The notes under the pieces were generated by a model, which was given only the letters and a program-made list of their open reading frames with translations, was not told the origin of the DNA and ran no database searches. A stretch of DNA of 60,008 nt from IMG/VR virus record IMGVR_UViG_3300027874_000001, positions 1-60,008 of that record. One strand, 5' to 3'. The stretch comes from a virus (taxonomy: Duplodnaviria; Caudoviricetes). Made by a program: the position numbers and the translations under genes. This document shows, piece after piece, positions 1 to 60,008 of this stretch; within the stretch, counting starts at the first letter, position 1, and every line of letters starts with the position of its first letter.

Positions 1-99
1 CTAACCGCCAGACCAAGGCTCAGCTGGTGAAGCTGCTTCTCGGCAGCGAGCCCAAGGCTGCGAAGCGCAGCCGCAAGGCCACCAAGAAGTAGGCCAAGC
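1..99. repeat. 99-bp direct repeat identical to 59910-60008 (circular-assembly overlap)
   Basis: Bases 1-99 (ctaaccgcca...aggccaagc) match 59910-60008 exactly and lie inside the 3' end of CDS 59375-60001. Confidence 0.95.
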
Positions 100-101
100 G
101 T

Positions 102-143
102 AGAAGTAGGCCCCTGCCCAGCCAGGGTGGGGGCCTTCTTCTT
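102..143 (+). terminator. Probable intrinsic terminator after the 59375-60001 gene (read across the circular junction)
   Basis: Stem AGGCCCCTGCCC/GGGTGGGGGCCT with two G-U pairs, followed by TCTTCTT, 10-50 nt after the TAG at 90-92. Confidence 0.6.
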
Positions 144-900
144 ACCCCTGGGGTAGAACCCGCCGTCTGATTACCTAGCCCCGAACCCCTACCCTTCCAT
201 ACCCCACCCTTCCTTACCCCCACCCTGGTACCCCGAACGTTCCTCCCTACAGTTCAGTACAGCGAACGTTCTATCAAGCCGTCTGAATAAAGGAAGGTTC
301 GTATATACCGAGGCTTCTATAATAGGGAACGTTCATATAAGGGCGGGCGATCGGACCGTCTGAATAGGAACGTTCGTATATACGGGGGCTCGTATATAGG
401 GGCTCATATATAGGGGCTCGTATATAGAGCGTTCTATATAGGGCTACGTATAGAGGCGTACCTATAGAGCGTAGTAGTAGAGCGTTCGCTATAGGGCTGA
501 GCCTATAGGTAGAGGGCTGAGGGTAGAGGGGTAAGGGTAGAGCCCTATATGTAGAAGGGTATATGTATGAGGGTAAGGCTCTGTGTATGTGATCGTTCGT
601 GTTGGTATGCGAAGCTGTAATGCGAGAATTAATATTGATTAATCATTATTGTTCTCGTGTTACTGAAGCTTCATTGTTCTTGTGTATGTGAAGGTTCGTT
701 GCCAGTATGGAAGGCTGGGATCGGGCCGTCTGATTTGTGCGGGAGGGTGGTACTATCTCGCTGCGCCGCTAAATGCGAGGGGGTGCCCCCAGAACGGGCG
801 GGGCGGCGGCGGTCCCACCCCTTCCATATATTTCTCCCTACACTCCCTTAGCACACCCCTTAGAACCAACACGAACCCCACCCGCCGGGTAGACTACCTA
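144..900. repeat. Non-coding repeat-rich region; candidate replication origin or genome-end/packaging region
   Basis: CCGTCTGA at 163, 279, 356 and 726; GAACGTTC at 235, 264, 327 and 368; a degenerate ~14-16 nt GG..CTCRTATA(TA) array at ~290-510; an AT-rich patch at 627-653; no credible ORF. Confidence 0.6.
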
Positions 901-955
901 CGTAGTACCGCTTCAGCCAGAAGTGAATTCCAACCTAGAGATCCAAGGAGGATCA

Positions 956-1177
956 ATGCCTAGGAGAAACAACCGCCAGAAGGGTGCACGCATCCCGAGC
1001 GCCCGTATTTACAGCTCCGCTTGGGGCTCGGATGGCGAGCTTCATCCCGTCAACCGGAACAAGAAGGTCAAGTGGCCCACGGAGACCCGCACGCTCATCC
1101 ACCCGCACGGGCGGCTCACCCGTAGCGTGCTCAGCCCACAGGAAGCTAAGAAGCTCAAGCAGCAGCTAGGAGGTTAG
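956..1177 (+). CDS. Small basic early hypothetical protein
   Basis: AAGGAGG RBS before ATG 956; R/K-rich, 73 aa. Confidence 0.7.
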   Translation: MPRRNNRQKGARIPSARIYSSAWGSDGELHPVNRNKKVKWPTETRTLIHPHGRLTRSVLSPQEAKKLKQQLGG

Positions 1178-1183
1178 TACCAG

Positions 1184-1600
1184 ATGCAAGTTCCAGAAAT
1201 GCCACAGATCCCCAACCCACCCGAGCCCAACACGTTCTATCTCACGGCAGTTCGGCAGCCCAACCGGGAGCACGCCGATCTTGACTACACCGAAGTGGTG
1301 TACATCACAGAGGACGGTTCGGCGATCTACATGACCGATCCCGCCCGCTACGGTCCGGGAGAATGGCTCGAACCAGACCACCCCGTCGAAGGCAAGCCTC
1401 TCACCCCAGAAGAGGCCCGCCAGGAAGTCATCGCCTTCGCAGAGGGGATTGTCTACGGCTTGAAGGACGGCCAAGGGAGCCCAGGGCGGGTGTTCCTGCG
1501 CCTGAGCGAGGCCTACAATCCAGGAGGCGAGCTGCACCACGATACTGATGGCTACGACTTCGTGCCCCACCCCTACTACGGATCCAGCTACACGGAATAG
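1184..1600 (+). CDS. Hypothetical protein
   Basis: AGGAGG RBS; 138-aa ORF with phage-like codon use. Confidence 0.75.
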   Translation: MQVPEMPQIPNPPEPNTFYLTAVRQPNREHADLDYTEVVYITEDGSAIYMTDPARYGPGEWLEPDHPVEGKPLTPEEARQEVIAFAEGIVYGLKDGQGSPGRVFLRLSEAYNPGGELHHDTDGYDFVPHPYYGSSYTE

Positions 1601-1607
1601 GAGAACC

Positions 1608-1862
1608 ATGCCCATCAACTTCCGCTGTCCGATCCACGGATCGCAAGAGGGCGAATCCCCGTACCAAGAGCCCACACAGGAGGAACTGATCGAGGAACTC
1701 GTGGCCCATCTCAACGGTCACGAGCATCAGCCTCCCACTGTTGATCCGATGTGCGGCTACTGCTACGAAGAGTGGGAGGTGCGCTCACAAGGCCAAGAAT
1801 CCGTGAACCTGTACGACGACTACCTCAACAACCTGATCAAGGAGGAATGCCTGTGCGAATAG
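1608..1862 (+). CDS. Small Cys/His-containing hypothetical protein
   Basis: AGGAG RBS before ATG 1608; CPIH and CGYC motifs. Confidence 0.65.
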   Translation: MPINFRCPIHGSQEGESPYQEPTQEELIEELVAHLNGHEHQPPTVDPMCGYCYEEWEVRSQGQESVNLYDDYLNNLIKEECLCE

Positions 1863-17131: not shown

Positions 17132-17995
17132 ATGGCAAGACCGAAAGCCATCGTGCCGGTGGCGACGGATGACAACTTCGTCAATGTGATGCTGTTCAGC
17201 GAGCCAGGTGCGGGAAAGTCCGTATTTGCAGGAACCAGCGAGAAGGCGTTGATTCTGGCTAGCAATGCGAACGAGACAACGCCGATGGCTATTCACGGCA
17301 GTAAGGCAGAGAAGTGGGTCATGGAAGATCACAATGACCTGTTGGAAGCGCATGAGTATCTACGCCATGGCGGAACGCAGGAGTTCGAATGGGTCTGGTT
17401 GGACAACGGCACCTTGATGCAAGAGCAGGGGCTGGACCAGATCATGGCGGACGTAGCGGCAGCTAAGAGCAATCGCAGCATCTACAGACCAGATAGGCCG
17501 GAGTACGGTGAAAACCAGAACCGGATGGGTCTATGGGTGCGTTGGATGGTAGCGCTGCCGATCAACTTCGGCATCACTGCGCATGTCATGACGGTAGAAG
17601 ACCCAGCGGGCAACCAGCTCAAGATGCCATTGTTCCAAGGTGGAGGCGATAAGTTCGCCCAGAAGCTCTGTGGCTACATGGGAATGGTGGGCTACATGAC
17701 GGTGGCGCACCGCAAGGAGGATGACGTCCGCAAGATCATCCTCACCAAGCGGGCAGGGATCATGGCCAAGAACAGGTTTCATTGTTTGGGGAAAGAGTGG
17801 TACGTCAAGACCGGCAAGAATGGCCTCATTGACCCCACAACCGGAATTCCCGGATGGATGAAGGAGATCAGTAAGGTGTTACCCAACCTTGGGAAACATG
17901 ATGCCCCTGTTGTAAATCTAGAACAGCGCCGCCGTCGCCCCGTCAAGAAGGCGGCGGGTAGGGTAAGGTCCACAACGGCCCGCAAGGCCACCTGA
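17132..17995 (+). CDS. Sak4/AAA_24-like P-loop ATPase (recombination)
   Basis: Walker A SEPGAGKS, Walker B WVWLDN, ITAH and AKNR motifs; AGGAGG RBS. Confidence 0.8.
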   Translation: MARPKAIVPVATDDNFVNVMLFSEPGAGKSVFAGTSEKALILASNANETTPMAIHGSKAEKWVMEDHNDLLEAHEYLRHGGTQEFEWVWLDNGTLMQEQGLDQIMADVAAAKSNRSIYRPDRPEYGENQNRMGLWVRWMVALPINFGITAHVMTVEDPAGNQLKMPLFQGGGDKFAQKLCGYMGMVGYMTVAHRKEDDVRKIILTKRAGIMAKNRFHCLGKEWYVKTGKNGLIDPTTGIPGWMKEISKVLPNLGKHDAPVVNLEQRRRRPVKKAAGRVRSTTARKAT

Positions 17996-22203: not shown

Positions 22204-22950
22204 ATGACCAACATCGCAGTACTGGGGTGTGGTCCCGCCGGATTACTAGCGGCCCACGCCGTCGCCATTGCGGGCTACGATCCGCATATCTTCAGCGTGA
22301 AGACCCCGAGCCGTATCGGCGGGGCCCAGTATCTACATAGTGCCATTCACGGGCTCACGGATGTAGAGCCAGATGGCAAGGTGGAGTTCGTCAAGATAGG
22401 TAGCCGTGATGTCTACGCCGAGAAGATCTACGGAGACATCGAGGCGCCAACTAGCTGGGAGGAGTTTGCCCACGGCATTCACGAGGTCTGGAATCTACAA
22501 GAGGCGTACCACAACCTGTGGCAGATGTACCACAACAATGTGATCGACGTCACGGTGGATTACTCCATGGTGCTGGAGCTGAACGCTACTCACAGCCTCA
22601 TCCTCAGCACCATTCCTCCAAAGGGCTACTGCATCACGCCGGAGCACCAGTTCATTCGGCAGCGGGTGTGGATCAGTCAGGAGCTGAAATGTAGAGAGAT
22701 GCAGATCGTCTACAATGGCAACCCCAACCTCAAGTGGTACCGAGCTAGCAACTTGTGGGGCCATACGTTCACGGAGTACGCCTTCCTGCCGGGGCATCAC
22801 CCTGCCGTCAAGGTAGATAAGCCGTTGCGTACAGATTGTACCTGTGGCAAAGATCTACTAGTCAGGCTGGGGCGCTACGGCAAATGGGAGAAACGTCCGC
22901 TGTCCCATGACGCCTACTTTGGAGCGTTGGCGGCCATCAATGCTATGTGA
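22204..22950 (+). CDS. FAD/NAD-binding oxidoreductase, distantly UDP-galactopyranose-mutase-like
   Basis: IAVLGCGPAGLLAA Rossmann motif; C-terminal LGRYGKW. Confidence 0.75.
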   Translation: MTNIAVLGCGPAGLLAAHAVAIAGYDPHIFSVKTPSRIGGAQYLHSAIHGLTDVEPDGKVEFVKIGSRDVYAEKIYGDIEAPTSWEEFAHGIHEVWNLQEAYHNLWQMYHNNVIDVTVDYSMVLELNATHSLILSTIPPKGYCITPEHQFIRQRVWISQELKCREMQIVYNGNPNLKWYRASNLWGHTFTEYAFLPGHHPAVKVDKPLRTDCTCGKDLLVRLGRYGKWEKRPLSHDAYFGALAAINAM

Positions 22951-23596
22951 ACGATGCAGCGCCAAGGTGAAGCCCGTTGTCGTATTCGATGTAGATGGCA
23001 CGCTAGCTCGCTACCACGAAAGCTGTAGCAACTTCGTTCGGACATACTGGGGAATGCCAACGGTCGAATGTGACTGGGATGGAGCGGGCGACTTCGAAGC
23101 CTGGCTGGGGCTAAGCAAGGATCAGTGGCGCCAAGCCAAGCTGGCTTATCGGCAGGGTGGTCAGAAACGCTTCATGAAGGCGTACCATTCAGCCCTTAGC
23201 TCGCTTCACAGCCTGGGCCAACAGGCAGATATCTGGATCGCTAGCAATCGTCCCTGGCAACGGCTAGATAATGTAGACGGTGACACTCGCTGGTGGCTGG
23301 AGCGGCAAGGCGTCCAGTTCAAGGGATTGCTATTCGGGGATGACAAGTATGGCGACCTGGTGGAGATTGTCGACCCCAATAGGATCCTAGGTGTAGTGGA
23401 GGATCTTCCGGACCAGTTCGATCGTGCCAAGGATCTAGGACTGCCAGTGTGGCAGATCGCTCGGCAGCACAATTCACACCCCACTCAAGAACGGAGGCCA
23501 CGGGCTAATATAAACGAGGTACAGATGGGGATTACCCTGGACTTAGTTCGTTGGGATAATGAGACAGGAGAACATAGTGGGATACGATCCGAGTGA
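22940..23596 (+). CDS. HAD-family phosphatase (5'-deoxynucleotidase-like)
   Basis: FDVDGTL motif I, ASNR motif II, K, VVED motif IV. Confidence 0.8.
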   Translation: MLCERCSAKVKPVVVFDVDGTLARYHESCSNFVRTYWGMPTVECDWDGAGDFEAWLGLSKDQWRQAKLAYRQGGQKRFMKAYHSALSSLHSLGQQADIWIASNRPWQRLDNVDGDTRWWLERQGVQFKGLLFGDDKYGDLVEIVDPNRILGVVEDLPDQFDRAKDLGLPVWQIARQHNSHPTQERRPRANINEVQMGITLDLVRWDNETGEHSGIRSE

Positions 23597-23927: not shown

Positions 23928-24091
23928 CTTCTCAGAAGTGCACTCAATGTGGTGCTATTCAACTTACTTTCGGTCCAAACGAGGGCTTCTATCCGTACGC
24001 AGAGACCTACCTATTCGTGACCGGGATGGTCAGGAACAGGTTCACTAGCAGTTGTCCCGCTGGCGGCAGTCATACCTGGGGAGCGAACTAG
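23924..24091 (+). CDS. Small Zn-binding protein (55 aa, CTQC...C...H); not in ORF track
   Basis: ATGA overlap, GGAGG RBS; TAGTG overlap into dnaE. Confidence 0.6.
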   Translation: MTSQKCTQCGAIQLTFGPNEGFYPYAETYLFVTGMVRNRFTSSCPAGGSHTWGAN

Positions 24092-27000
24092 TGGGTGAAA
24101 GCTGCGACAGCATCAAGGGCAACGCCTTCGGGCATGGGCCGGTCGAGGAGGAGAATCACCATGTCTTCAGACAACGTCCGCCGATGCGCTACGTCAGCTT
24201 GCACCATCATAGCACTTTCAGTTACCTGGACGGCTATCAGATGCCTGAAGCTCACGTCCGCCGTGCTACAGAGCTCAACATGGGCGCTCTCGCACTTACA
24301 GAACATGGAAACGTCAGCTCCTGGTCCAAGCTGGAACAGTCCGCCCTGCGAGAAGGAATCAAGCCCATCTACGGTTGCGAGTTGTATACCGGCCTCGTGG
24401 GAGAACGGGCAACACAACGAAAGAACCACCTGACGGTCCTGGCAGAGAATCAGACAGGCCACCGCAATATACTGGAGATCGTCAGCCAGGCGTTCCAGGA
24501 TTTCTACTACGAGCCTACCACAGGCTGGGATAATCTACAAGCGCACCGGGACGGGTTGGTCGTGCTATCGGGCTGTACTGGGTCACTGCTACAGACTAGT
24601 CTGATGGGCGGCAAGAACATTGACCCGGCAGATGCCAGCTACGAGCGGGGGAAGGGGGTGGCACAACGGTTCAAGCGTCTTTATGGGGATAGCTATTACC
24701 TAGAAGTTCAAGCATTCCCGCAGCTTGAGAACATCTGTCGGGTCAATCCCATGCTGGCAGCCATAGGGGACGAGCTCGATATCCCTCTGGTAGCGACAGG
24801 CGACGTTCACTACACCACGCTGCGAGAGAATGAGATGCAGCAGATTCTTCACAACGTGCGAGGCGGCAACAAGCAGACCCTGGAGGAACAGGCTCGGGCC
24901 TGGGGCTACGACGTACCGCTGTGCCCTCCCCTGAGCGACAAGGCTATGGTTGCTCGCTTACGATCGACGGGCTTGTCTCGTAGGCAGGCTGTCGAGGCAG
25001 TCTTGAGCACAGAGGAGATAGCACAGCGGTGTAACGTCACTCTACCGCACCTGCCATTCCTGCGCTATCCATGTGAAGACCCGGTACAGGTATTCAAGGA
25101 CTGGCTACGAGAAGGGTGGGCCTACCGCAAGTGCGATCGTCTCAATCGTAGCGAGCAATCTCGTTACCGGCGTCAACTTACGTACGAGATGTCCATCATC
25201 CAGGAGAAGGACTATGTCGATTACTTCCTCGTCGTCAGCGACATCGTCAAGTTCGCCAAGAATTCTGGAATCCCGGTTGGCCCTGCTAGAGGAAGCGCTG
25301 CAGCTTCAATCGTGTGTTGGTTGCTTAGAATCACCGAGGTCAATCCTATGGTGTTTCCTGGCCTGGTATTCGAGCGGTTCATCGATCTCACCCGGTCCGA
25401 CTTGCCAGATATCGATCTTGACTTCGACAGTGACCGTCGCAGTGAGATCTGGGAATATGCACGTCGAAAGTATGGAGAGGCCTGCGTAGGGTCGATCGGC
25501 ACCTTCACCTTCTACAAGAGTAAGAACTCGCTAGATGACGTCGCCAGGGTGTACCGCATCCCGGTGTACGAAGTGGAGCGGGTGAAGGAACTCCTTCTAG
25601 AACGTAGCTCGGGCGACCTGCGGGCGTCCGCTACTATTGAAGACACCGTCGAACAGTTCGAGGCTGCCGCTGCCGTTGTAGAGAAATACCCAGAGCTCCG
25701 CAAGGCAATGGACCTGGAGGGAAATGTAAAGGGCATGGGGGTACACGCTGCCGGATTAGTGGTGGCGAATGGTCCCCTGACGGAAATCTGTGCCACCTAC
25801 GAGCGCAAGGTCAAGGATGAGCGGGTATCGGTCATCAGCCTGGACAAGGAGGATGCTGAGAAGTATGGCGTCCTGAAGATCGACATCCTTGGCTTGAACA
25901 CAATGAGCATGATCGCTGAATGCCTGCGGATGCTCGACATGCCGTTGGAGGCACTGTATGATATTCCTCTTGACGACCCAGACGTTATTGCTGCTTTCCA
26001 GCGCAATGACGTGGTTGGTGTATTCCAATTCGATGGAAGAGCTATGCGGTCGGTCAATGCTGAGCTCCAACCAGATTCCTTCAAGGAAGTTTGCGATGTC
26101 AACGCTCTTGCTCGCCCTGGCCCTCTGCATAATAACGCTAGTGCTGAGTATGTCGATATCAAGTGGGGGCGTAAGCGACCTCAAAGGATCCACCCACTGT
26201 ACGATCGTATCGCAGAGCAGACTCATTACCAGATCATCTATCAAGAACAGATACTACGTATTGTGCGAGAGATCGGTGGATTTGACTGGACCCACGCCAG
26301 TTACATTCGCAAGATCATAAGCAAGAAGATCGGCGAGCAGGAGTTCAATCGGCAGTGGGGCAAGTTCTGGGAAGGCGCTAAGGAGCGAGGATTAGAGGAA
26401 GAGCAGGCTCGCCGCATCTGGGGTATGTGTATAACGGCTGGCTCATATGCGTTCAATGTGGCCCACTGTGTTTCGTATGGGATGCTAGCCTGGTGGACGA
26501 TGTGGTTGAAGGTCCACCACCCCATCGAGTTCTACGTAGCATCCCTGATGAAGATGCCGGAGGATAAGCAGCTCAACTACCTGCGGGACGCCCACCGCCA
26601 TGGCATCACGGCAGAACCACCAGACCCCAACGCTAGCGGCCTAAGCTGGTCGGCGGTGGATGGGCGGCTACTAGGCGGACTGATACAGATCCCCGGTATA
26701 GGACCCAAGCTAGCGCCCGCTATGGTGAACTTCAGGGAGGAACAGCCGTATGGCGTCCGAGGTTGGAACCATTATCAGGAACTTCGTGGCGTGGGTGAGA
26801 AGAAGACTGCAGCGTGGCAAACCTTCTGCGACGGAGACGATCCCTACGGAGTCCACTGGCTCCAGAGAAGGCTGGACTCTATACGTGAATCCATCGAAGG
26901 AGGCGAGCTCGGGGCGCTTCCGGTTCCTACGCACACGTCGCTAGAGATACCGTACAGCCGAGGCAATGACGAGGCGGTGGTGTGGCTGGGAATGATCCGC

Positions 27001-27294
27001 CACCGCAACCTGCGAGATCTGTTCGAAAGCAACTTCGCTCGCACTGGGGTAGAGCTCAAACCGGAAGAGGTCAAAGACCCACATCTGAATGAATGGGTCA
27101 TCGCCATTGGGGAGGACGAGGACGAGCTCGTCACTATCACGTGGGACCGCTGGAAGTACCCGCACTGTAAGCGGGGCATCTGGGGCATCAAGCTGAACAG
27201 CGACGTGGTACTGATCCAAGGAGTGAAGAAAGGTTGGCAGGCACGCCGAGCGGTATACGTCACTAGATTCTGGGTAATAGATCCCGACACATAG
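24091..27294 (+). CDS. dnaE: DNA polymerase III alpha subunit (C-family) with PHP domain
   Basis: LHHHSTFSYLDG, TEHG and GDVH PHP motifs; GPARGSAA, PDIDLDF, KIDILGL and YAFNVAH. Confidence 0.95.
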   Translation: MGESCDSIKGNAFGHGPVEEENHHVFRQRPPMRYVSLHHHSTFSYLDGYQMPEAHVRRATELNMGALALTEHGNVSSWSKLEQSALREGIKPIYGCELYTGLVGERATQRKNHLTVLAENQTGHRNILEIVSQAFQDFYYEPTTGWDNLQAHRDGLVVLSGCTGSLLQTSLMGGKNIDPADASYERGKGVAQRFKRLYGDSYYLEVQAFPQLENICRVNPMLAAIGDELDIPLVATGDVHYTTLRENEMQQILHNVRGGNKQTLEEQARAWGYDVPLCPPLSDKAMVARLRSTGLSRRQAVEAVLSTEEIAQRCNVTLPHLPFLRYPCEDPVQVFKDWLREGWAYRKCDRLNRSEQSRYRRQLTYEMSIIQEKDYVDYFLVVSDIVKFAKNSGIPVGPARGSAAASIVCWLLRITEVNPMVFPGLVFERFIDLTRSDLPDIDLDFDSDRRSEIWEYARRKYGEACVGSIGTFTFYKSKNSLDDVARVYRIPVYEVERVKELLLERSSGDLRASATIEDTVEQFEAAAAVVEKYPELRKAMDLEGNVKGMGVHAAGLVVANGPLTEICATYERKVKDERVSVISLDKEDAEKYGVLKIDILGLNTMSMIAECLRMLDMPLEALYDIPLDDPDVIAAFQRNDVVGVFQFDGRAMRSVNAELQPDSFKEVCDVNALARPGPLHNNASAEYVDIKWGRKRPQRIHPLYDRIAEQTHYQIIYQEQILRIVREIGGFDWTHASYIRKIISKKIGEQEFNRQWGKFWEGAKERGLEEEQARRIWGMCITAGSYAFNVAHCVSYGMLAWWTMWLKVHHPIEFYVASLMKMPEDKQLNYLRDAHRHGITAEPPDPNASGLSWSAVDGRLLGGLIQIPGIGPKLAPAMVNFREEQPYGVRGWNHYQELRGVGEKKTAAWQTFCDGDDPYGVHWLQRRLDSIRESIEGGELGALPVPTHTSLEIPYSRGNDEAVVWLGMIRHRNLRDLFESNFARTGVELKPEEVKDPHLNEWVIAIGEDEDELVTITWDRWKYPHCKRGIWGIKLNSDVVLIQGVKKGWQARRAVYVTRFWVIDPDT

Positions 27295-27871: not shown

Positions 27872-28046
27872 GACGTTCACCATCGGAGAGACGGCGGAGC
27901 ACGGGGAGGATACCATCGCCTTCAACGGAGATCAGGGTTCGTATCTCCTGCTCACTCGGCAGGCTTGGAACGACAACAACTGTCCCCAGACGATAGTCGC
28001 CTCCTTCACGGGGTCAGATCCATATAGCACAGAGGAGCCAGCATGA
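27864..28046 (+). CDS. Hypothetical protein
   Basis: AAGGA RBS; overlaps both neighbours. Confidence 0.6.
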   Translation: MDETFTIGETAEHGEDTIAFNGDQGSYLLLTRQAWNDNNCPQTIVASFTGSDPYSTEEPA

Positions 28047-32641: not shown

Positions 32642-33864
32642 GCACGACGCTCCCGTGTCTTGATCTGCATAGTTGAAGCCTTGACACTGCCAGACACTGC
32701 CTCTACCAGGTACAAGCCGCTGGCTCCGATGGCGGGGTCAGTGACCTGAATGATGTCCTCCACCTCGATGTAGGGATTGTAGTTGATCTCCATGGTGATG
32801 GTTTCCAGCACTCCTCTCAGCTTCCACATCTTGGCGGTGGCCACCCAGAGAGCCTGTGTGTTATCTACAATGTACTTGGATTGCTCGAAGTAGGGAGATG
32901 CACCAAAGGTGCTAGCGGTGGGATTGGCAGGGTCGTAGTAGGTGGGGCTATTTGGGTCTGTGTTCCAAGCCCTACCCTCTGCCGGTGGTGCGTCGCTTCC
33001 GCTGGATTCACCACGCATGATGACGCCATTGTAGGTCTTCTCGACCGATAGTTGGCGTGCATCTCTTACGATCTTGGTGTCACTGTCTATTCCTAACACC
33101 CATTGTGGCGTGAGACCTGCCACATCGACATCTGGGTCGTGTACGGGAGAAACTATGCAGCGCCCGTAGCTGTCGAACCAGAGTCGGTAGCCCACTGCTT
33201 CCGCTAAACCTATCACGGCATCTAGGTAGTTCGATGTCTCGCTGATGTCGTAGCTGAGCAACGGCGTCTTGTACTGCGTCGGTGTCAGAATGGTAGGGAA
33301 TGTCTTGGTATTTCCAGATGCGACCAACAGGTAGAGAATCGCATCAATGAAGTTCGTGCCCTTGTCAATGGTGAGGGGAGAGGTGAACTTCATGCGCTGT
33401 AGTCGCATAGCCCGATCTAGCCCGTGAATGGTAAGCTTCACGGCACCAGATTCCCTGGTAACATCGGTGACATTGAATCCGAAGATGCCGATGGACGTGT
33501 AGTAGGGAATGCCAGTCTTGGGATCAATGAACCCTTGCCACAGTTGGAACTCTGTGCTAGCAGCGGGTGACAAAGATCCGATTTGGCCTATGGTAAGAGG
33601 CTGAGGACTAGGACCAGGCAACAACTCGGTGGTAGCTGGATCTATCTGCAGCGTTATCTCAGCCTCACTCATGATGCTACGAGTGAAGTCCTGAGACCAG
33701 CTACCATCGATCACTTTGATGCGGACCTTGTGTACGTCGGCAGAAGTGGAGGCGATCACTGTGCCGGCAGCGGAAAGTAGATCCACTCTGGTAGCCACCT
33801 GAGCAGCACCGTGGTCTAGGAAAGTTCTCCCATCTACTCCTCCGATGAGTGCATTGCGAGCCAT
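32638..33864 (-). CDS. Minor tail protein (DUF5047-like hub)
   Basis: LWFDSYG, YNGVIMRGE, NSPTYY..FG motifs; position. Confidence 0.7.
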   Translation of the reverse strand: MARNALIGGVDGRTFLDHGAAQVATRVDLLSAAGTVIASTSADVHKVRIKVIDGSWSQDFTRSIMSEAEITLQIDPATTELLPGPSPQPLTIGQIGSLSPAASTEFQLWQGFIDPKTGIPYYTSIGIFGFNVTDVTRESGAVKLTIHGLDRAMRLQRMKFTSPLTIDKGTNFIDAILYLLVASGNTKTFPTILTPTQYKTPLLSYDISETSNYLDAVIGLAEAVGYRLWFDSYGRCIVSPVHDPDVDVAGLTPQWVLGIDSDTKIVRDARQLSVEKTYNGVIMRGESSGSDAPPAEGRAWNTDPNSPTYYDPANPTASTFGASPYFEQSKYIVDNTQALWVATAKMWKLRGVLETITMEINYNPYIEVEDIIQVTDPAIGASGLYLVEAVSGSVKASTMQIKTRERRA

Positions 33865-36029
33865 CAGACCGAGCCTACGTCAATGAAGTTGATGTCTAGT
33901 TCGTGAGCGTGGCGTACTGGCGTTGTCTCCGTTGGAAGCTTGACCGCCCGGAGCATGGCCCAACTGATGTTGTCGTCTGGTTGCACGTACCACTGTCGGC
34001 CGAGAACGTCTTGTAGCAACAATGTTCTGCCGGAAGAGATCAGCAGCTGTAGGGCAGCGTACTGAGTTGCATTGAGGGAATGAATGGTCCCGCTCAGCTT
34101 GGCAGATTTGACCCCATCATGGCTCATCACGGTGGTGTTGACGTTCGCAGGCCAACTAGTACCCACCGGATAGCTGACCACGTTGGGCTTGGCGTAGGTG
34201 AGTTTGAAGTTATCGATCATGATGGCGATGTTGCGAGTAGAATCAGTAGGATCCTTCAGCCAGAATGAGTTGAAGGTCGGAGCCACCGACACCACAGGAG
34301 ACCAATCGCTCACTACGAAGTTGGCATTCCACGTGGACGATACTCTGGCACGGTAGTAGATCGTCTTGCCACGAGGTATCTCGTACTCGTACATGATGAT
34401 CTGCTGTCCCACGGGCTTCTTCCCGACAAAGGGAGATCCACGCATTGGTTGCCAGCCGCCGATCCAGCCGCCCGCTATGGTACCGGCGCCGGGATCTTCG
34501 CTCCGTTCCACAAACAGATTGTTGATGGAGCTATCAAAGCCACCGGCAAACCAGTTGGTCGAGGTTCCTGGCATCAATCCCATGCGGTCAAATAGGAACT
34601 GTTCGTTGGCAGCCGCTGCCGTGAGGAACCCGACCCTCACACTAGCGAAGGCAGCAGTGCCGGGAGACGTGGCCGTTACCGTCACCCTGGACCAGGCCGT
34701 GGTGGTAGGTTGCACTGTGGTAGAACTGGATGTGGAGATGAACAATCCCGACACCGTCCACCACATGATGTCGACTCGGCAGTTACGAGCGGCGGGTGCA
34801 GTGAGCTGACGGCAATCAGCCATGGCTGTGTACTGTACGTTGGGGAGAACCGGAATGGCTGAGGTTGTCTGCGCAGTGGAGGCCAAAGCATCTCCGGCAG
34901 CGCTAGATTGAACTTGGAGGGAAGCTACACCGTTGGAAGCCTGAGCAGTAGAACGTGACACAGTGCAGTTGCTGAGAACACTCCAGTCTACCACACTGGT
35001 TTCCACACTAGCAGCGTTGGCGCTCAGCTCGTTCTGTAGGTCTTGCACTGTGATGATCAAGCGAGCATTGGCGTCGTCTGCTACCGCCACGACACTAGGG
35101 ACCGCAGGAGGATCCAGGGTCAGAGTGAAGGCAGAGCTAGAGGCCCAGGGAGAGTACTGGGGCCAACCCACAATATCTGGTTGCCAGCACTTGACATACG
35201 CCTTGTAGGTGTTCCCGTTGTTGAGATCGTAGTCAACATGGTCACCGGAAGCGTTGTCCGAGATGGCTCCGGTGTCGAATACGGCAGTGGAGGTATCCGG
35301 ACTGAATCCTGCCCCGCCATAAACAGAAGAGTGGAAGATCTTCATGTTATGCTTCACCTTGGGGTCGTTCTCTGGATCACTGTAGTTCCAAAGAACGTCA
35401 GGCTGGGTTGTGACGATGGTACCGCTGGGCGAAGTGACAGTGACCGCTGGGGCTTCGTTGTACTGTACATCTAGCCTGCACATTGACAATCTAGTTCCAG
35501 TGTCGTATACTCCAGTAGAATCACTCCACAACGCCACCATCACCGCCCACTCCCACCTGCCGCTGCTAGTGGTGGGAGCGGCGTCATACCAGATCCTTAC
35601 TGGCTCCCATGGTTGGCCCGCACTAAGGGTAGATATCCAAGGCGTGGTGTATTCTCCGAACACGTTGGTGGTTGGGATCATGTTGGAGGGTGGATATGGA
35701 TTTGGAAAGGTGTACCAATCTTCACTTGTGCTGGCTGTGCCTTGGATTCCTAGCCAGAAGACGGAAGACGTCATATTCGCTGTAGATCTCGCTACACGAA
35801 TAGCAACCCGCATCTGCTGCAGATGAGCATTGGCCGGGATAGAAGGGTTGGCGAATCCATAGCGCAGGAGTGCGCCGGTGGAGGCGGTGACGCTCTGGAT
35901 GTAGCTGGTGTCGCTGGCGTCCAAGGCAGCCTGAGCGCTGGCAGCACCAGTGATGGTACGACCTCCGGTTCCGGATCCCATACCGACGATGGCTCGCTCG
36001 CTCTGGGGATAAACAGAAACAATGCCCAT
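33864..36029 (-). CDS. Minor tail protein with carbohydrate-binding-like insertion
   Basis: Directly after the tape measure; S/T-rich beta protein with NAASVET...ASNGVASL CBM-like segment. Confidence 0.7.
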   Translation of the reverse strand: MGIVSVYPQSERAIVGMGSGTGGRTITGAASAQAALDASDTSYIQSVTASTGALLRYGFANPSIPANAHLQQMRVAIRVARSTANMTSSVFWLGIQGTASTSEDWYTFPNPYPPSNMIPTTNVFGEYTTPWISTLSAGQPWEPVRIWYDAAPTTSSGRWEWAVMVALWSDSTGVYDTGTRLSMCRLDVQYNEAPAVTVTSPSGTIVTTQPDVLWNYSDPENDPKVKHNMKIFHSSVYGGAGFSPDTSTAVFDTGAISDNASGDHVDYDLNNGNTYKAYVKCWQPDIVGWPQYSPWASSSAFTLTLDPPAVPSVVAVADDANARLIITVQDLQNELSANAASVETSVVDWSVLSNCTVSRSTAQASNGVASLQVQSSAAGDALASTAQTTSAIPVLPNVQYTAMADCRQLTAPAARNCRVDIMWWTVSGLFISTSSSTTVQPTTTAWSRVTVTATSPGTAAFASVRVGFLTAAAANEQFLFDRMGLMPGTSTNWFAGGFDSSINNLFVERSEDPGAGTIAGGWIGGWQPMRGSPFVGKKPVGQQIIMYEYEIPRGKTIYYRARVSSTWNANFVVSDWSPVVSVAPTFNSFWLKDPTDSTRNIAIMIDNFKLTYAKPNVVSYPVGTSWPANVNTTVMSHDGVKSAKLSGTIHSLNATQYAALQLLISSGRTLLLQDVLGRQWYVQPDDNISWAMLRAVKLPTETTPVRHAHELDINFIDVGSV

Positions 36030-40054: not shown

Positions 40055-40413
40055 TACCTACCCCACTTCCGAACGTAGTAGAAGGCGATGCCCTTGGGCT
40101 GATCTTCCTTGTTGTGCTCGCTCTGCCTCAGCAGAGCTTCTCGCTCTTCTTGAAGATCTACGCATCCGATGCACCGGCGGCTCTTCATCTCGTAGGGCGG
40201 ATCCATTAGGGGGCGCCCTTCCTCGTCTAGCCAATCGCTGGGTATCGTACCGCATCCGCTACACCGGGTGGCTTCTCGTGTCTCATACAGGAAAGCCTTG
40301 TCCCGGTCGTCTTGGGTCCAGCGGTGCGGACCTCCTAGGAAGAAGCTATGCGGAATTCCGTGGGGAACACAGTAGGCCAGCTCACTCAGGAGCTGAGGAT
40401 CCCCATCTAGTCT
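40054..40413 (-). CDS. -1 frameshift extension of the tail assembly chaperone (gpGT-like, ~303 aa total)
   Basis: Open -1 frame RLDGDPQLLSELAYC...CSGC...CIGC...KWGR* from the slippery site to a TAA overlapping the TMP ATG; no upstream start of its own. Confidence 0.85.
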   Translation of the reverse strand, partial: RLDGDPQLLSELAYCVPHGIPHSFFLGGPHRWTQDDRDKAFLYETREATRCSGCGTIPSDWLDEEGRPLMDPPYEMKSRRCIGCVDLQEEREALLRQSEHNKEDQPKGIAFYYVRKWGR

Positions 40414-40964
40414 TTTCCCAGGTTGATGAGATTACTACGCAGGTTGACCTGCACGGCCGCATTGAAGATCTCGGTCATCTCGGCAGAGCTGAACAACTCG
40501 TCGTCGAACATCTGCTTGACGTCTTCTTGACTGAGTTCTGGGTCGATGCAGCAGGCTGAGATCAGCACAATGGGGAATTCTTCCAGGTCCCATCCGAGCT
40601 CTTCCGGATTCTGACCGTTCTGCATGGCTCGCTTGCGGTCAGCATCAGTGGGTGGGTGGGCAGTGCGCAACTGATCAAATCGGTTGCGGCCCAGAGAGCG
40701 AAATACAAACTTGGTAGAGTTGGCCCTCGCCTCCTCCAGGAGTTGTTCCTTCTCCTCCTGGAGGCGAGCGAGTTCCGTACGAGCCCCTTCGTCTTCGTTG
40801 TTGAGCCGTAGCGTGAGCGACGTCTGCAGGTGCTGTTGGGTGACCTGCTCCAGCCGATCGGTGATTTCAGGGTCGTTGGCGAAGCGCACCGTCTTGGTGA
40901 CCGGCTTCTTCGTACTACGAATGTGATCCAGTGTCTGCGGCTTGTGTGAATTCGAAGCGGGCAT
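40407..40964 (-). CDS. Tail assembly chaperone (gpG-like)
   Basis: Between major tail and TMP; ends ...NLGKD with G GGA AAA. Confidence 0.85.
   Translation of the reverse strand: MPASNSHKPQTLDHIRSTKKPVTKTVRFANDPEITDRLEQVTQQHLQTSLTLRLNNEDEGARTELARLQEEKEQLLEEARANSTKFVFRSLGRNRFDQLRTAHPPTDADRKRAMQNGQNPEELGWDLEEFPIVLISACCIDPELSQEDVKQMFDDELFSSAEMTEIFNAAVQVNLRSNLINLGKD
40413..40419 (-). promoter_or_regulatory. Programmed -1 frameshift slippery site GGGAAAA
   Basis: X XXY YYZ heptamer in frame, one codon before the chaperone stop. Confidence 0.85.
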
Positions 40965-56360: not shown

Positions 56361-56689
56361 GGGCGTGTCACATCCGGTGTGGTGGTTACGGAACCAGAGG
56401 CGATGGTGGTGATGTTGCCAGAACCGTCCGTCAGCTGGCAATCCCATACTGCCGTGGCTGGTAAGCTGGAAGAGACGGTGTGGGGAATGGTGAGGTTCAC
56501 GATGTTGGGAGCTGTGATGGACGTGGTCATGGCTCCCAGTACGGAACTGTTGGCGGCAGTGGCGCGAATCTGAGCTGTGGCGGTCTGGCCCGTGATGGCG
56601 GGACCACTGCACGTCAGTGTGAAGGTGAAGTCGTCTCCGGCGTACAGGGTGAGATCGACTTGACTGGGCATGGCACCGATAGCGGTCAT
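56357..56689 (-). CDS. Fibre adaptor-like beta-sandwich protein (paralog B)
   Basis: LTLYAGDDF...AQIR...WDCQL...G. Confidence 0.7.
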   Translation of the reverse strand: MTAIGAMPSQVDLTLYAGDDFTFTLTCSGPAITGQTATAQIRATAANSSVLGAMTTSITAPNIVNLTIPHTVSSSLPATAVWDCQLTDGSGNITTIASGSVTTTPDVTRP

Positions 56690-57009
56690 CGTGTCACTTC
56701 CTGGAGAACTTTGACGGGTCCGTACACGACGGTGGTGATCAAACCAGTGGGGCTGATCAGCTGCAGATCCCACTTGTAACTACCAGCCAGATGTTTGGAC
56801 ATGAAGCTAGGCAGTGTTATGGTGATGGTGGGTGCGTTGGGAGTTATGGTCGGAACTAGGGTGGCGGCTGGCGGTCCAGGGGCGTCGTCTGCGAATCCTG
56901 TACGGATCTGTGCCTGCGCCGTGTACCCGTTCAAGTCCGTGTATTCCGGCAAGGTGATGGCCAGGCTGAAGTCGTCCCCTTGGTAGAGCTGTAAGGGCTG
57001 GAGCTTCAT
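56686..57009 (-). CDS. Fibre adaptor-like beta-sandwich protein (paralog A)
   Basis: LQLYQGDDF...AQIR...WDLQL...G.V.V..EVTR. Confidence 0.7.
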   Translation of the reverse strand: MKLQPLQLYQGDDFSLAITLPEYTDLNGYTAQAQIRTGFADDAPGPPAATLVPTITPNAPTITITLPSFMSKHLAGSYKWDLQLISPTGLITTVVYGPVKVLQEVTR

Positions 57010-57025
57010 GCGGGCGGAGTATAGC

Positions 57026-57982
57026 TCAGGTGGTGGTGGCTTCGGTGGCCTGTGTTTCTAGTGGCAGCGCATAGCCTTGCTGGGCGGGGACCTCGGTGAG
57101 GTACTTGCGTGCGAGCTCTGGCGCTAGTGCCCGTTGTTCCGGTGTCAGGGCTAGGCTGCGGTCCTTGATGAACGCGAGCAGAACGGCGGCGATCATCTTG
57201 CCCTGGCCTTCCGCTAGGCTGATCTGGCGCTCTGCTACGCCCATGGCCACGGCTGCCTTGCAGGCTTGGAGTAGGTGGGTGCGCTCGTGCTGGTACATGT
57301 CGATCCAGACGGAGGGCTTGATTCCCAGGTTGGTCCACTGGTGCAGTACTCGGTTCTCACCTATGGATTTGTTGAGGGTTCCTTCCGGCGTCTCTGGATC
57401 TATGCCTAACTCTTGTATGCGTTGCAGTAGCCATTCAATGTGGCCTGCGGTGCGGTGGATCTCCTGCAGTACGGCGGTGTGCGGATCGATCTTCTTAGGG
57501 CGGCCTAGGGTTGGTTCGAAGTTGTGGAGTAGGGAGAGCTCCTCGTTCAGGGTTTGCCGTAGGTTCTTGGCGCTGTGGCCTTTGGTGTTGCCGCCGTGCA
57601 GCTTGCACGCTCCCTGGCCCAGGTGATCTGTGCCCCACCCTGCCGGCATACAGCAGATACCTGGGCCAGAGGAGCTCTTGCCGGTGCGACGTGCACCGCA
57701 GATCTCAGTATCCTGGCGCTTCCTGTTCTCAGGGGTTGTCGGTACGGGATCTACGTACCCTCTTGGATACCCCTTGAGACTTTCCCCCTTGGCCTTTGTG
57801 CGGCGAGTCGGGGTTAGTTTCTCCGGTTGGCTGGCGTTCGTTGTATCTTCGTTGGCGGGCTCGTTCTTCCGGCGTCTTGACGAGCGGGTTCCGTTTGGGC
57901 TTCGGGGCTCGCTTGGGCTTGGGCTTGGGTTGGCGTGGGGTGAGGTCGATGAGATCCTCGATGAGCTCTTCTTGCGTGGCAT
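57026..57982 (-). CDS. Terminase small subunit-like protein (HGGxSTG-type); start uncertain
   Basis: CGA...C..PAGWGTDH.G.G.CKLHGG and C-terminal ER.HL...K.A...GVAER. Confidence 0.65.
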   Translation of the reverse strand: MPRKKSSSRISSTSPHANPSPSPSEPRSPNGTRSSRRRKNEPANEDTTNASQPEKLTPTRRTKAKGESLKGYPRGYVDPVPTTPENRKRQDTEICGARRTGKSSSGPGICCMPAGWGTDHLGQGACKLHGGNTKGHSAKNLRQTLNEELSLLHNFEPTLGRPKKIDPHTAVLQEIHRTAGHIEWLLQRIQELGIDPETPEGTLNKSIGENRVLHQWTNLGIKPSVWIDMYQHERTHLLQACKAAVAMGVAERQISLAEGQGKMIAAVLLAFIKDRSLALTPEQRALAPELARKYLTEVPAQQGYALPLETQATEATTT

Positions 57983-58532
57983 AGTGAGTCTTAGGGTAGC
58001 GGACCTTGTGTTGAGCCTTGATAATGGCCATGCGTAGGAGTCCTTGCCTCAGAATGTTCTTCCAGTAGGTGACATCCTCTATGGTCACTGGTAGATCTTC
58101 CTTGTAGATATCTATCGTGCGCTGTACGTGGCTGACCCATTCTGGCGTTGGGTAGCAGTGCTGTTTCCAGTGTTTGCACTTGATGCTGACGCATACCTTC
58201 CGGCCGCACCAGCAACATGTATGGATCTTGCGGCCCGAGTGGCAGAGGTAACAATGGTCGCCGAATGTGTTCATGTACATGGCGTACTGTTTCTTGCAGT
58301 GTTGGTCGTGGAAGGGGCTGTTGTTGCCTCTGCGGCCGGGACGGTACTCGAGAGTCTTGACCTGGAGGCAGCCAGGGCAGATACGGAGGTAGCGAGCGGG
58401 GTCGTTCTTGGCTGGTCTACACTCAGGATGCCAGACGGTTGGTTGTTGTACGGGCTTGAGGCAGGTGGGGCAGTAGTAGCCCAACGGGTTGTTATCTGGG
58501 TTGAGTTGCTGTTGTGGCTGTCGTGCTGTCAT
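57729..58532 (-). CDS. Cys-rich basic protein; first gene of the leftward operon (leaderless)
   Basis: Multiple CxxC motifs; ATG 6 nt after a -10 box. Confidence 0.6.
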   Translation of the reverse strand: MTARQPQQQLNPDNNPLGYYCPTCLKPVQQPTVWHPECRPAKNDPARYLRICPGCLQVKTLEYRPGRRGNNSPFHDQHCKKQYAMYMNTFGDHCYLCHSGRKIHTCCWCGRKVCVSIKCKHWKQHCYPTPEWVSHVQRTIDIYKEDLPVTIEDVTYWKNILRQGLLRMAIIKAQHKVRYPKTHYATQEELIEDLIDLTPRQPKPKPKRAPKPKRNPLVKTPEERARQRRYNERQPTGETNPDSPHKGQGGKSQGVSKRVRRSRTDNP

Positions 58533-58538
58533 GGGGCT

Positions 58539-58567
58539 AGGTTATACTACGCTATGGGTTGAGGCAA
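58539..58567 (-). promoter_or_regulatory. SigA-type promoter for a leaderless transcript
   Basis: Minus strand reads TTGCCT-N17-TAACCT-N6-ATG, with no SD. Confidence 0.6.
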
Positions 58568-58578
58568 GTGGCTATTTG

Positions 58579-58704
58579 GAGATGCAGCTAGCTAGGTTTA
58601 GTGGTGTTGTACTAACGAGAGCATAGTAAATCTAGTATAATACTACTTAGAACTAACTAACCTAACGAGAGCATAGACCCAGTAAAGTTAGCTAGCTGCA
58701 TCTC
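58579..58704. repeat. Inverted repeat enclosing two direct repeats, in the divergent intergenic region
   Basis: GAGATGCAGCTAGCTA (58579-58594) / TAGCTAGCTGCATCTC (58689-58704); CTAACGAGAGCATAG at 58612 and 58662; TATAAT at 58636. Confidence 0.85.
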
Positions 58705-58768
58705 GTGAGTATGAGTATAAACGGTGCATAGTATAGACGTGATTCCTATGTATTTGGAGGTGGTTCTT

Positions 58769-59209
58769 GTGTTTCTTGTGGGTGTGGATCCTGGGGGAAC
58801 GACGGGTGTGGCGTGGCGGGATAGGAGTGGAAGGGTTGTGTCGGTGGATGTGGAAGTGGGGTTGGATTGGTCGCGTGTGGCGGATGTGGTAGCTACAGTG
58901 CGTAGGGTGGTAGAGGAGTCGGGGGCTGGTGGCTGGAGTGGGGCGAGATTGTATGTGGAAGATTTTGTTCTAGTGCCTCGAAGTGTGTTGAGTAGGGATG
59001 GTTCGACGCCTCTAGTTGTTATCGGGGCGCTGTATGGCGCTTTCGGCAGGTTGGTATCACTGGGACAGAACGCTGCTCTTGCTAAATCGACGTTCACGGA
59101 TAAGCGTTTGCGAGCTCTAGGGTTGTGGGATAAGCGTTCAGCTCATCAGAGGGATGCTATTCGTCATCTTCTCTTAGCGGAGAGAAGGGAGAAAGGGAGG
59201 AAAGGGTGA
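58769..59209 (+). CDS. RuvC-like Holliday junction resolvase
   Basis: VGVDPGGTTG, YVEDF and HQRDA motifs; GGAGG RBS before GTG 58769. Confidence 0.8.
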   Translation: MFLVGVDPGGTTGVAWRDRSGRVVSVDVEVGLDWSRVADVVATVRRVVEESGAGGWSGARLYVEDFVLVPRSVLSRDGSTPLVVIGALYGAFGRLVSLGQNAALAKSTFTDKRLRALGLWDKRSAHQRDAIRHLLLAERREKGRKG

Positions 59210-59374
59210 GAGTCGGCTGCCGCCCTACTAAATATCTGTTTATTCTAGTAACTAACGTGAAATTCTACGGCCTTCCGCCGGGCGCCCCGTAGTAAGCTAA
59301 CGGGCAAGCCCGTTAGCCGGGCGAACTGATTCGGGCACCTTGCCCGGAACACGGCTCCAAGGAGGGGCCAAATC

Positions 59375-60001
59375 ATGAAGCAGACAGACCCAGGCTTCGA
59401 AGAAGCCATCGCCGAAGCCATCGAGCGCAAGCTCGGCGGCGAGTCGTCCAAGGATGTTCTGGTCACCAGCCATGGCAACCTGAGCCACAGCCAGTTCGAG
59501 CTGGCGTTCTGGCGGCAGGTGCCGGAAGCGCAGGGTGGCCTGGCCGAGCACGTCGGTAGTTCGCCCCGCACGGGCGAGTGGGCCATCGTGTGGCGCGATC
59601 TGGTGCAGGTCAGCTGGGGCCAGATCAGCATCCTGATGGACTGCCCGGAGAGCCAGGTGCGCAGCCTCTACAAGGAGGCCAGTGGCAAGCTCTCCCAGGG
59701 CAAGCGCATCGGCCACGGTGGTCGGTGGTACCTGAACGAGCGCGAGCTGTACGTGGATGGGCTTCAGCGCCCAGGCACGGAGATCCCCAAGGACCACGAG
59801 GGGCGCAGCGTGCGCGAGCAGGCCATCCTGAGCGCCACCGAGCAGAAGCTGATCCACAAGGACATCAGCGCCCTGCGCGAGCTGGCGAAGGCCAACGGCC
59901 TGGCGATCACTAACCGCCAGACCAAGGCTCAGCTGGTGAAGCTGCTTCTCGGCAGCGAGCCCAAGGCTGCGAAGCGCAGCCGCAAGGCCACCAAGAAGTA
60001 G
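59375..60001 (+). CDS. HTH-like DNA-binding protein with C-terminal HeH and basic tail; paralog of 11404-12159
   Basis: RD...SWGQI...E..R.LY...SGK..G.RIG.GGR shared with 11404; ISALRELAKANGL...TKAQLVKLL; AAGGAGG RBS. Confidence 0.75.
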   Translation: MKQTDPGFEEAIAEAIERKLGGESSKDVLVTSHGNLSHSQFELAFWRQVPEAQGGLAEHVGSSPRTGEWAIVWRDLVQVSWGQISILMDCPESQVRSLYKEASGKLSQGKRIGHGGRWYLNERELYVDGLQRPGTEIPKDHEGRSVREQAILSATEQKLIHKDISALRELAKANGLAITNRQTKAQLVKLLLGSEPKAAKRSRKATKK

Positions 60002-60008
60002 GCCAAGC
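59910..60008. repeat. Copy of bases 1-99
   Basis: Exact match. Confidence 0.95.

Follow-up and report, generated by a model that had tools for sequence, protein, structure and literature searches.

Near-total, step-like exclusion of AAAA and TTTT in an actinophage genome and in cultured cluster EF phages

Introduction

Why does an actinophage genome with hundreds of AAA and TTT runs contain almost no AAAA or TTTT? The question concerns IMG/VR virus record IMGVR_UViG_3300027874_000001, an entire assembly consisting of a single 60,008 bp contig (57.3% guanine plus cytosine, GC), which was analyzed at its full length and is referred to below as the window; it is the genome of a siphovirus-type phage resembling those of actinobacteria. 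The original prediction, made by eye from the sequence, ascribed the near absence of these words to strong selection and named as candidate causes a modified thymine, slippage by the phage DnaE, evasion of the A-tract-binding silencer Lsr2 or of a defense sensor, and avoidance of U-tract termination. Genes were called with an in-house procedure combining open reading frames (ORFs) and codon scores, which gave 79 genes covering ~91% of the genome, and the coordinates are those of these calls rather than of a curated annotation.

Results

AAAA and TTTT are depleted beyond codon-usage and Markov expectation

An exact count over the whole genome reproduced the three runs of four that had been read by eye, one of A (17511-17514) and two of T (40413-40416 and 58963-58966), with none of five or more, alongside 410 runs of exactly three (222 A3 and 188 T3; "hundreds" in the original prediction). 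For AAAA and TTTT words together, 250 are expected from base composition, 159 under a first-order Markov model and 36.7 under a second-order Markov model; three were observed. In 200 within-gene synonymous-codon shuffles the expectation was 70.8 ± 8.0 for AAAA and 54.1 ± 6.8 for TTTT (~125 in total), and the lowest shuffle counts were 47 and 39, respectively. Counted as runs of at least four A or T, the shuffles give ~104 against the three observed, in line with the order of a hundred estimated by eye. Both controls named in advance, the second-order Markov model and the codon shuffle, thus predict far more A4/T4 than is present, and the depletion stands.

Codon usage as the cause is ruled out by the synonymous shuffles. 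An assembly artefact or homopolymer compression, which the original prediction had already discounted, is unlikely, as the genes are long and intact, ~91% of the sequence is ORF and the same pattern occurs in independently sequenced isolates and in metagenomes.

The exclusion is abrupt and independent of frame, strand and coding status

The exclusion switches on abruptly at length four. A runs were observed at 222 of 293 expected for length three, 1 of 47 for length four and 0 of 10.6 for five or more, and T runs at 188 of 271, 2 of 40 and 0 of 6.4. Combined, this is 410 versus 549 (0.75) at length three, 3 versus 81 (0.04) at length four and 0 versus 16 beyond. The deficit at length three is equally large in phages that lack the length-four cut-off (hereafter the trait): it is 0.79 in G004, the closest relative found, and 0.58 in Microbacterium phage TinyMiny, compared with 0.57 in Hiddenleaf, which has the trait.

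Relative to gene strand, sense AAAA was seen twice against 83 expected and sense TTTT not at all against 41. By start at codon position 1, 2 or 3, sense AAAA gave 0/24.7, 1/46.6 and 1/13.0 (observed/expected) and sense TTTT 0/9.5, 0/21.1 and 0/11.9; the purge therefore includes the frame that contains no AAA or TTT codon (xAA AAx, xTT TTx). Among the 72 non-coding A/T-only runs of at least four, A4/T4 occurs in one, compared with 12.5 expected under random A/T arrangement, and the 5.1 kb of non-coding DNA has one where zero-, first- and second-order Markov models predict 23, 15 and 4.2. The AT-rich elements of the genome are assembled instead from TpA-containing words such as TATATA, TATAATA and AATTAATATT.

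These results bear directly on an RNA-level cost, whereby the words would be penalized through frameshifting of ribosomes at A/U runs, slippage during transcription, U-tract termination or cleavage by an A/U-run-specific RNase. In a survey of double-stranded DNA viruses, the words most often under-represented, whichever of the three frames is considered, include AAAA, TTTT, GGGG, CCCC and CGCG; AAAA and TTTT lead the 4-mers, and ribosome slippage is put forward as the cause (PMC7320823). The window depletion likewise extends over all three coding frames, and G_GGA_AAA serves this phage as a genuine frameshift site (see below). However, the largest expected class is precisely the frame without AAA or TTT codons, sense A and sense T runs are both gone, non-coding A/T-only runs are purged as well, and the trait is missing from other phages that share the host and its translation machinery. 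The effect in the survey is statistical and ascribed to ribosomal frameshifting in coding regions (PMC7320823), whereas that in the window is near-total (0.02–0.04 of expectation), step-like, extends into non-coding DNA and toggles between sister lineages. The prediction that a ribosomal-slippage model ties to translation is contradicted both in non-coding DNA (1 versus 12.5–23) and in the xAA AAx frame (1 versus 46.6), and U-tract termination, one of the originally proposed causes, fails because sense AAAA is purged like sense TTTT, in every frame and in non-coding DNA. RNA-level explanations fail the frame and non-coding tests, and we consider them improbable.

The selection is thus independent of codon usage, frame, mRNA strand and coding status, and AAAA/TTTT have very probably been lost to purifying selection acting on the DNA word as such. 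The original claim of strong selection is borne out, since the depletion far exceeds the codon-usage and Markov controls and the slippery site has been kept.

Surviving runs

The T4 run at 40413-40416 lies within 40413..40419, minus strand, a G_GGA_AAA slippery heptamer that serves a -1 programmed frameshift in the tail assembly chaperone gene. The zero frame there reads CTG GGA AAA GAC TAG, five codons separate the heptamer from the end of this gene, and a -1 shift yields a 303-residue chaperone fusion that ends at ~40054, at the start of the tape-measure gene. The heptamer is the classical tail-chaperone frameshift signal and the only clearly required A4/T4 copy in the genome, and it has been kept. 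The original prediction was right that a GGGAAAA frameshift site is among the survivors; it is located here, on the minus strand, and not at the run at 17511. The lone surviving run of G003, another phage with the trait, is also GGGAAAA and adjoins the chaperone gene. Of the two other survivors in the window, the A4 run at 17511..17514 (plus strand) lies in an AAA_24/RecA-like gene (17072-17995, plus strand; Pfam), in the codons GAA AAC, where the word starts at codon position 2 and is synonymously avoidable, and the T4 run at 58963..58966 (plus strand) lies in 57983-59374, a stretch without a confident gene.

In cluster EF phages a surviving T4/A4 run (cgatccAAAAtgcgaa, minus strand) is located ~13–28 bp from the record end (for example, at 56062 in Hiddenleaf). 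It is identical in four of the six A4/T4-free EF phages, and Rie18 and Hager have a variant at the same place; the conservation suggests a functional element upstream of gene 1.

The trait is patchy among phages and absent from sampled host chromosomes

To compare genomes, a GC-robust metric was used, the number of A/T runs of at least four divided by that of at least three, across 23 phage genomes or contigs. Ten have the trait (fraction 0.007–0.040): the window (3 of 413 runs; binomial p = 4e-21 against a rate of 0.13), its IMG/VR relatives G001 (1/124), G002 (1/141) and G003 (1/62), and six Microbacterium phages of cluster EF (Krampusvirus), in which runs of at least four number two in Hiddenleaf and Krampus, three in Erudite, four in Rie18 and five in MortySmith and Hager, each on a denominator of ~121–145 runs of at least three. 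The remaining 13 (G004, G005, TinyMiny, Wollypog, SirHarley, Papyrus, Sienna, GRU1, Kimchi1738 and the Microbacterium foliorum phages Morrigan, Fizzles, Anseraureola and Unphazed) range from 0.081 to 0.305 and lack it. G004 has 67 A/T runs of at least four, yet its capsid protein is 57% and its DnaE 68-69% identical to those of the window, and TinyMiny has 20 such runs, although it shares its genus and laboratory host with the EF phages. Five shorter loci of the family (L023, L024, L025, L027 and L050) are also significantly low.

Codon shuffles performed genome by genome place A4 runs at 0.04–0.12 of expectation with the trait and at 0.26–0.68 without it. Ordinary actinophages are therefore not equally depleted, an outcome that the original prediction had named as one that would refute it, although the same cut-off does exist in published cluster EF genomes. 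Ordinary actinophages exhibit only the mild homo-oligonucleotide deficit known for double-stranded DNA viruses, and the cut-off is something extra. Five other phages of Microbacterium foliorum NRRL B-24224 (from clusters EA6, EE and EK1, plus Fizzles and TinyMiny) have ordinary A4/T4 content.

The cut-off is not a host genome signature, which is ruled out by its absence from all 75 actinobacterial chromosome stretches sampled (pooled fractions 0.225 in one set of 40 and 0.217 in another of 35; lowest 0.059, on 17 runs). The sample comprised 15–24 kb stretches around rpoB, from 40 of 101 genomes found and 35 of 80 named loci, the other 45 named loci being dropped as non-actinomycete, Coriobacteriia, Acidimicrobiia or other classes, or as short contigs; the Microbacteriaceae were represented by Agromyces (2), Curtobacterium, Gryllotalpicola and Rhodoluna, with Microbacterium not among them. 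High-GC chromosomes are A4/T4-poor only because AAA and TTT are rare there.

The trait follows neither the polymerase nor the nucleotide cassette

The trait is uncoupled from polymerase type and from the nucleotide cassette. DnaE homologues occur without the trait in G004, G005, TinyMiny, Wollypog, SirHarley, Papyrus, Sienna, GRU1 and Kimchi1738, whereas G003, with the trait, has a family-A polymerase with a 3'-5' exonuclease, a PrimPol/D5 primase-helicase and a ThyA-family enzyme; G002, also with the trait, has PrimPol/D5. The DnaE-like Pol III alpha replicase of the window (24052..27294, plus strand) thus has no correlation with the trait.

The cassette in question lies at 22204..23596 (plus strand) and encodes a phrog_8720 protein (22204-22950) followed by a polynucleotide-kinase/HAD-like protein (22907-23596), as assigned with PHROGs; downstream of the replicase, a ThyX-like thymidylate synthase (28043..29050, plus strand) is conserved in relatives with and without the depletion. 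Together these genes underlay the original suggestion of a thymine analogue, broadened here to any substituted or bulky base, thymine or adenine, of the virion DNA, made by a ThyX-like/oxidoreductase/HAD-like cassette and poorly tolerated in runs. The presence of the ThyX-like gene with neighboring nucleotide-metabolism genes, and of the ThyA-family enzyme in G003, is consistent with such a base. The same cassette, DnaE and ThyX-like homologues are, however, found in G004, G005, TinyMiny, Wollypog and SirHarley, all with ordinary A/T runs, and Sienna, also ordinary, has every one of them except 22907-23596. Among the window proteins, no hypermodification enzyme, PurZ-like protein or DNA methyltransferase was recognized with Pfam and PHROGs, and the heavy CGCG and TTAA avoidance described below suggests that the DNA lacks general protection. 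A modified base is therefore very improbable. In the Wollypog and Hiddenleaf records, the equivalent position, flanked by the primase/helicase and DnaE genes, is occupied by a gene labelled "oxidoreductase".

The main rival to the explanation preferred below is homopolymer instability in replication: the replisome would slip or mis-realign at short runs, and these would be lost through selection against the frameshift load or through an eroding mutation bias. Actinobacterial hosts are not known to have MutS/MutL, which is the premise of this idea. The avoidance is homopolymer-specific, as A4/T4 are depleted in Hiddenleaf (1/30) and AAATT/AATTT are not (9/10); conserved survivors are solely functional sites; and G/C runs are capped as well. 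The original prediction held that this was not general homopolymer avoidance, which is only half correct: the A/T cut-off lies at a length where G/C runs are common, yet in the window G/C runs of at least six are also absent (0 versus ~22 expected) and those of length five are reduced (44 versus ~82). Across genomes, G/C runs of length six number 5 against ~162 expected by codon shuffle in DnaE-module phages (the window, G001, G005, seven Krampusvirus (cluster EF) phages including TinyMiny, Wollypog, SirHarley, Sienna and GRU1) and 37 against ~93 in phages without DnaE (Morrigan, Fizzles, Unphazed, G002 and G003).

Several features of the A4/T4 trait nevertheless argue against replication slippage, which would be graded by length, affect other repeats and track the replicase. 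The cut-off instead falls from 0.75 to 0.04 over one base with no extra length-three deficit relative to phages lacking the trait, dinucleotide repeats other than CG are not depleted in the codon-shuffle comparison, non-coding DNA is purged too, and the trait ignores the polymerase, as G004 and G003 demonstrate (67 runs with the related DnaE; one run with PolA); the G/C-run caps, by comparison, do track the DnaE-module phages. TinyMiny and Hiddenleaf are both capped at G5, yet they have 20 and two A4 runs, respectively. Slippage is unlikely in general, and slippage by the phage DnaE, as first proposed, is not supported, given the same two genomes.

As a separate observation, G/C runs are cut off at five in cluster EF, Wollypog, SirHarley and Sienna, and also in Papyrus by raw run counts; the ratio of G5 to G4 runs is 0.01–0.11 in phages with this G5 cut-off and 0.2–0.3 elsewhere.

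Gene content hints at the host-facing side of the phage

Within the capsid family, the amidase lysin and the three minor tail genes of the window (a host-interaction module at 30436..36029, minus strand; Pfam and PHROGs) have most of their homologues in the trait-bearing phages G001 and G002. G005, without the trait, has one of the four (32638-33864), and G004 has none, with a lysin combining CHAP and peptidoglycan-binding domains instead. This pattern faintly points to the host or its ecology rather than to the replication machinery. For three window proteins, homologues turned up exclusively among trait-bearing phages, in no more than two of G001–G003 apiece. Listing the ORFs found only in TinyMiny or only in G004 gave noisy results; Pfam searches of 16 such ORFs recognized only a GT2 glycosyltransferase and an SDR protein in TinyMiny and CHAP/peptidoglycan-binding lysins in G004. 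The TinyMiny family-2 glycosyltransferase (MZ681513.1, 44837-46111) lies directly downstream of DnaE and was not found in the six A4/T4-free EF phages; in Hiddenleaf, an annotated membrane protein occupies that position.

AAAA/TTTT is one of several separately excluded words

An unbiased k-mer scan against the synonymous-codon-shuffle expectation found further depleted words over the whole genome (observed/expected): CGCG 7/225, TTAA 3/56, AAATT/AATTT 1/34, AATTA/TAATT 1/24, G6/C6 0/29 and G5/C5 44/133. TpA-rich five-letter words composed of A and T persist (ATATA 14/21, TATAT 13/21), and AAAT/ATTT and AATT are merely ~2-fold down. AAAA/TTTT is therefore one among several separately excluded words (CGCG, TTAA, WAATT/AATTW and G/C runs of at least six).

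This set of words evokes the evasion of a reader of A-tract structure, either the Lsr2 silencer considered in the original prediction or minor-groove ligands made by actinomycetes (of the distamycin/netropsin type, or A-run alkylators) that bind narrow-groove A/T tracts of at least 4-5 bp. Lsr2 reportedly favors A-tracts and AATT and disfavors TpA steps (PMC8476142), and both the missing words (A-tracts, W-context AATT) and the tolerated TpA-rich words of the window mirror that preference; distamycin A reportedly inhibits phages T1 and T2 at host-sparing doses (PMC12360287). Unpurged host chromosomes would fit an agent from which hosts are protected. Among relatives, however, the components come apart: G004 avoids AATTW (2/27 and 1/21) and keeps AAAA (74/145), whereas Hiddenleaf avoids AAAA (1/30) and keeps AAATT/AATTT (9/10) and AATT (19/26). 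The modest loss of AAAT/ATTT and AATT also counts against such a reader, as does the expectation that a lone A4 between G/C would bind Lsr2 weakly, silencers binding long AT-rich stretches cooperatively; silencer evasion is not known to purge single 4-bp sites. An A-tract reader thus suits the window by itself but not the cross-genome comparison, and for the Lsr2 proposal the evidence is mixed; we regard this class of explanation as decidedly unlikely. The avoidance of A4/T4 can be dissociated from that of the other words, is labile in evolution and is specific to phages.

In this phage family, CGCG shows the behavior of a classical restriction target. It is kept in both carriers of a C5-methyltransferase, G002 (250/287, 0.87) and G003 (463/587, 0.79), and depleted in the window (7/214), G004 (5/148), G001 (59/248; an incomplete contig) and G005 (48/326), which are without that homologue (0.03–0.24). 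Self-methylation and CGCG avoidance look like alternative strategies in this capsid family. The methyltransferase genes are located at L064:146-1450 (minus) in G002 and L065:17254-18486 (minus) in G003 and nowhere else in this sample.

The avoided words are not distributed evenly along the window. Positions 923-56500 have A4/T4 at 2/120, CGCG at 0/213, TTAA at 1/53 and WAATT/AATTW at 0/55 (observed/expected). By word counts the terminal segment, 56501..60008, is still A4/T4-poor (1 versus 4.8 by shuffle or 15.3 by base composition) but holds all seven CGCG words (within 56563-59876; 7 versus 11.6 by shuffle or 23.6 by base composition). These last 3.5 kb, nearly exempt from CGCG avoidance, may be a recent acquisition or may be exposed differently during infection. 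Four of the seven CGCG copies lie in the gene at 59375-60001, whose GC content at third codon positions is 0.89.

Genome organization and other features

The plus-strand early/replication arm encodes a sigma-like protein, an SNF2 helicase, a PD-(D/E)XK nuclease, the AAA_24 recombinase-like protein, a primase/MCM-type helicase, the DnaE-like Pol III alpha and the ThyX-like protein, and the minus-strand late arm encodes terminase, portal, scaffold, decoration protein, E-type major capsid protein, tail tube, chaperone, tape measure, minor tail proteins and the amidase lysin (Pfam and PHROGs). The G form of the tail assembly chaperone (40407..40964, minus strand; phrog_19248) lies between the tail tube gene (40983-41459, minus strand; Phage_TTP_16 match) and the tape-measure gene (36029-40054, minus strand; PhageMin_Tail match). 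Two late proteins of 1315 and 871 residues (43612-47562 and 53994-56612, minus strand) match no Pfam family and have only fragmentary PHROG matches.

The window DnaE shares 46% identity with its counterparts in Arthrobacter phage Wollypog and Microbacterium cluster EF phages, and the terminase 48% with that of Streptomyces phage mu1/6. A large metagenomic family on contigs of 60–66 kb includes the capsid protein (55–70% identity). No nucleotide match was found in the phage collection, and the best IMG/VR terminase match is 51% identical. Hints of the host are limited to weak Arthrobacter and Gordonia matches in a tblastn search of phages with the lysin, and a protein atlas returned only "Viruses/Actinomycetota".

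At the left end, a GC-rich hairpin (109-135) is followed by an interrupted T tail, TTCTTCTT (136-143). The element at 109..143 (plus strand; -33.4 kcal/mol, z-score -2.76) looks like a terminator built without a T4 run, as had been proposed. A perfect-stem terminator scan returned one site, and a consensus terminator scan of 20–40 kb gave eight terminator-like sites versus 11.4 in shuffles. Upstream of the early genes, at 286-440, is an array of about nine TATATA/TATAATA/ATATAA boxes, spaced mostly by 13–17 bp with one gap of ~42 bp and flanked by repeated GGGGCTCG or GAACGTTC words, which could be a promoter array or origin iterons. An AT-rich element at 627-650, AATTAATATTGATTAATCATTATTG, contains two of the three TTAA words and the sole AATTA of the genome.

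Discussion

The best fit to these data is a host- or ecology-linked agent that reads A4:T4 and elicits a restriction-like avoidance, an explanation to which, taken as a whole, we assign a probability of roughly 0.4. A DNA-targeting agent met during infection of the actinobacterial host would read A4:T4; it might be an uncharacterized nuclease or another A-run-directed, DNA-damaging defense. Each site would cost the phage that carries it, and because of that cost synonymous and non-coding changes would erase the sites. A restriction-like agent fits best because of the step function, the purge of non-coding DNA, the independence from the replicase and the co-occurrence of classical site avoidance.

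The likeness to phage restriction-site avoidance (surveyed, for example, in PMC6286503) is considerable: a short word is nearly lost from both strands beyond codon-usage and Markov expectation, as for Type II sites, its loss is patchy among relatives, and other avoided words (CGCG and TTAA) co-occur, with CGCG avoidance alternating with C5-methyltransferase carriage (two of two carriers non-depleted, four of four non-carriers depleted). Unlike CGCG and TTAA, which are short palindromes matching known enzyme specificities, as is typical of Type II sites, AAAA/TTTT is a non-palindromic homopolymer for which no cognate enzyme is known.

Further points weigh against this explanation. We know of no restriction enzyme or defense system that recognizes AAAA/TTTT, and literature searches returned none; an ordinary methylase would protect only one strand of the non-palindromic AAAA. 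None of the 79 window proteins is common to the EF and metagenomic phages with the trait yet absent from those without it, and the link to the host-interaction module comes from three or four genomes. M. foliorum NRRL B-24224 poses no absolute barrier to A4-bearing phages, and scans of bacterial genomes with the lysins of the window and of Hiddenleaf, aimed at finding the host, gave no match. Finally, the G/C-run caps in DnaE-module phages hint at a phage-intrinsic homopolymer sensitivity that could extend to A/T runs.

A more specific form of the A4:T4-reading agent is possible but doubtful: an undescribed anti-phage agent of actinobacteria or of their soil neighbors, either a nuclease of new specificity or an A-run-directed, DNA-damaging natural product, may be so lethal per site that several unrelated phage lineages (DnaE-type, PolA-type and cluster EF) have erased every dispensable AAAA/TTTT while keeping the frameshift heptamer.

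A precedent of sorts is the absence of AGCT from pandoraviruses, where one 4-mer is likewise reported to be nearly missing from a viral genome without an assigned cause (bioRxiv 10.1101/712018), although there the virus is a eukaryotic giant virus and the word is palindromic. Homo-oligonucleotide under-representation and restriction-site avoidance are known already; what seems to be new is a near-total, step-like A4/T4 ban that toggles between sister lineages, including cultured EF phages. A literature search, with supplementary files outside its scope, returned no report of such an exclusion in actinophages, and the text of the cluster EF description (PMC7302621) contains neither "homopolymer" nor "tetranucleotide".

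Few features of a phage genome betray defenses that no one has yet seen, and avoided words are among them; a near-total, step-like ban on a non-palindromic homopolymer tetramer matches no known restriction specificity while recurring across different replication machineries. For phage design, recoding or synthesizing such genomes against the ban could alter their fitness. As the trait is present in cultured, genetically tractable EF phages beside TinyMiny, a congener that lacks it, its cause is directly testable.

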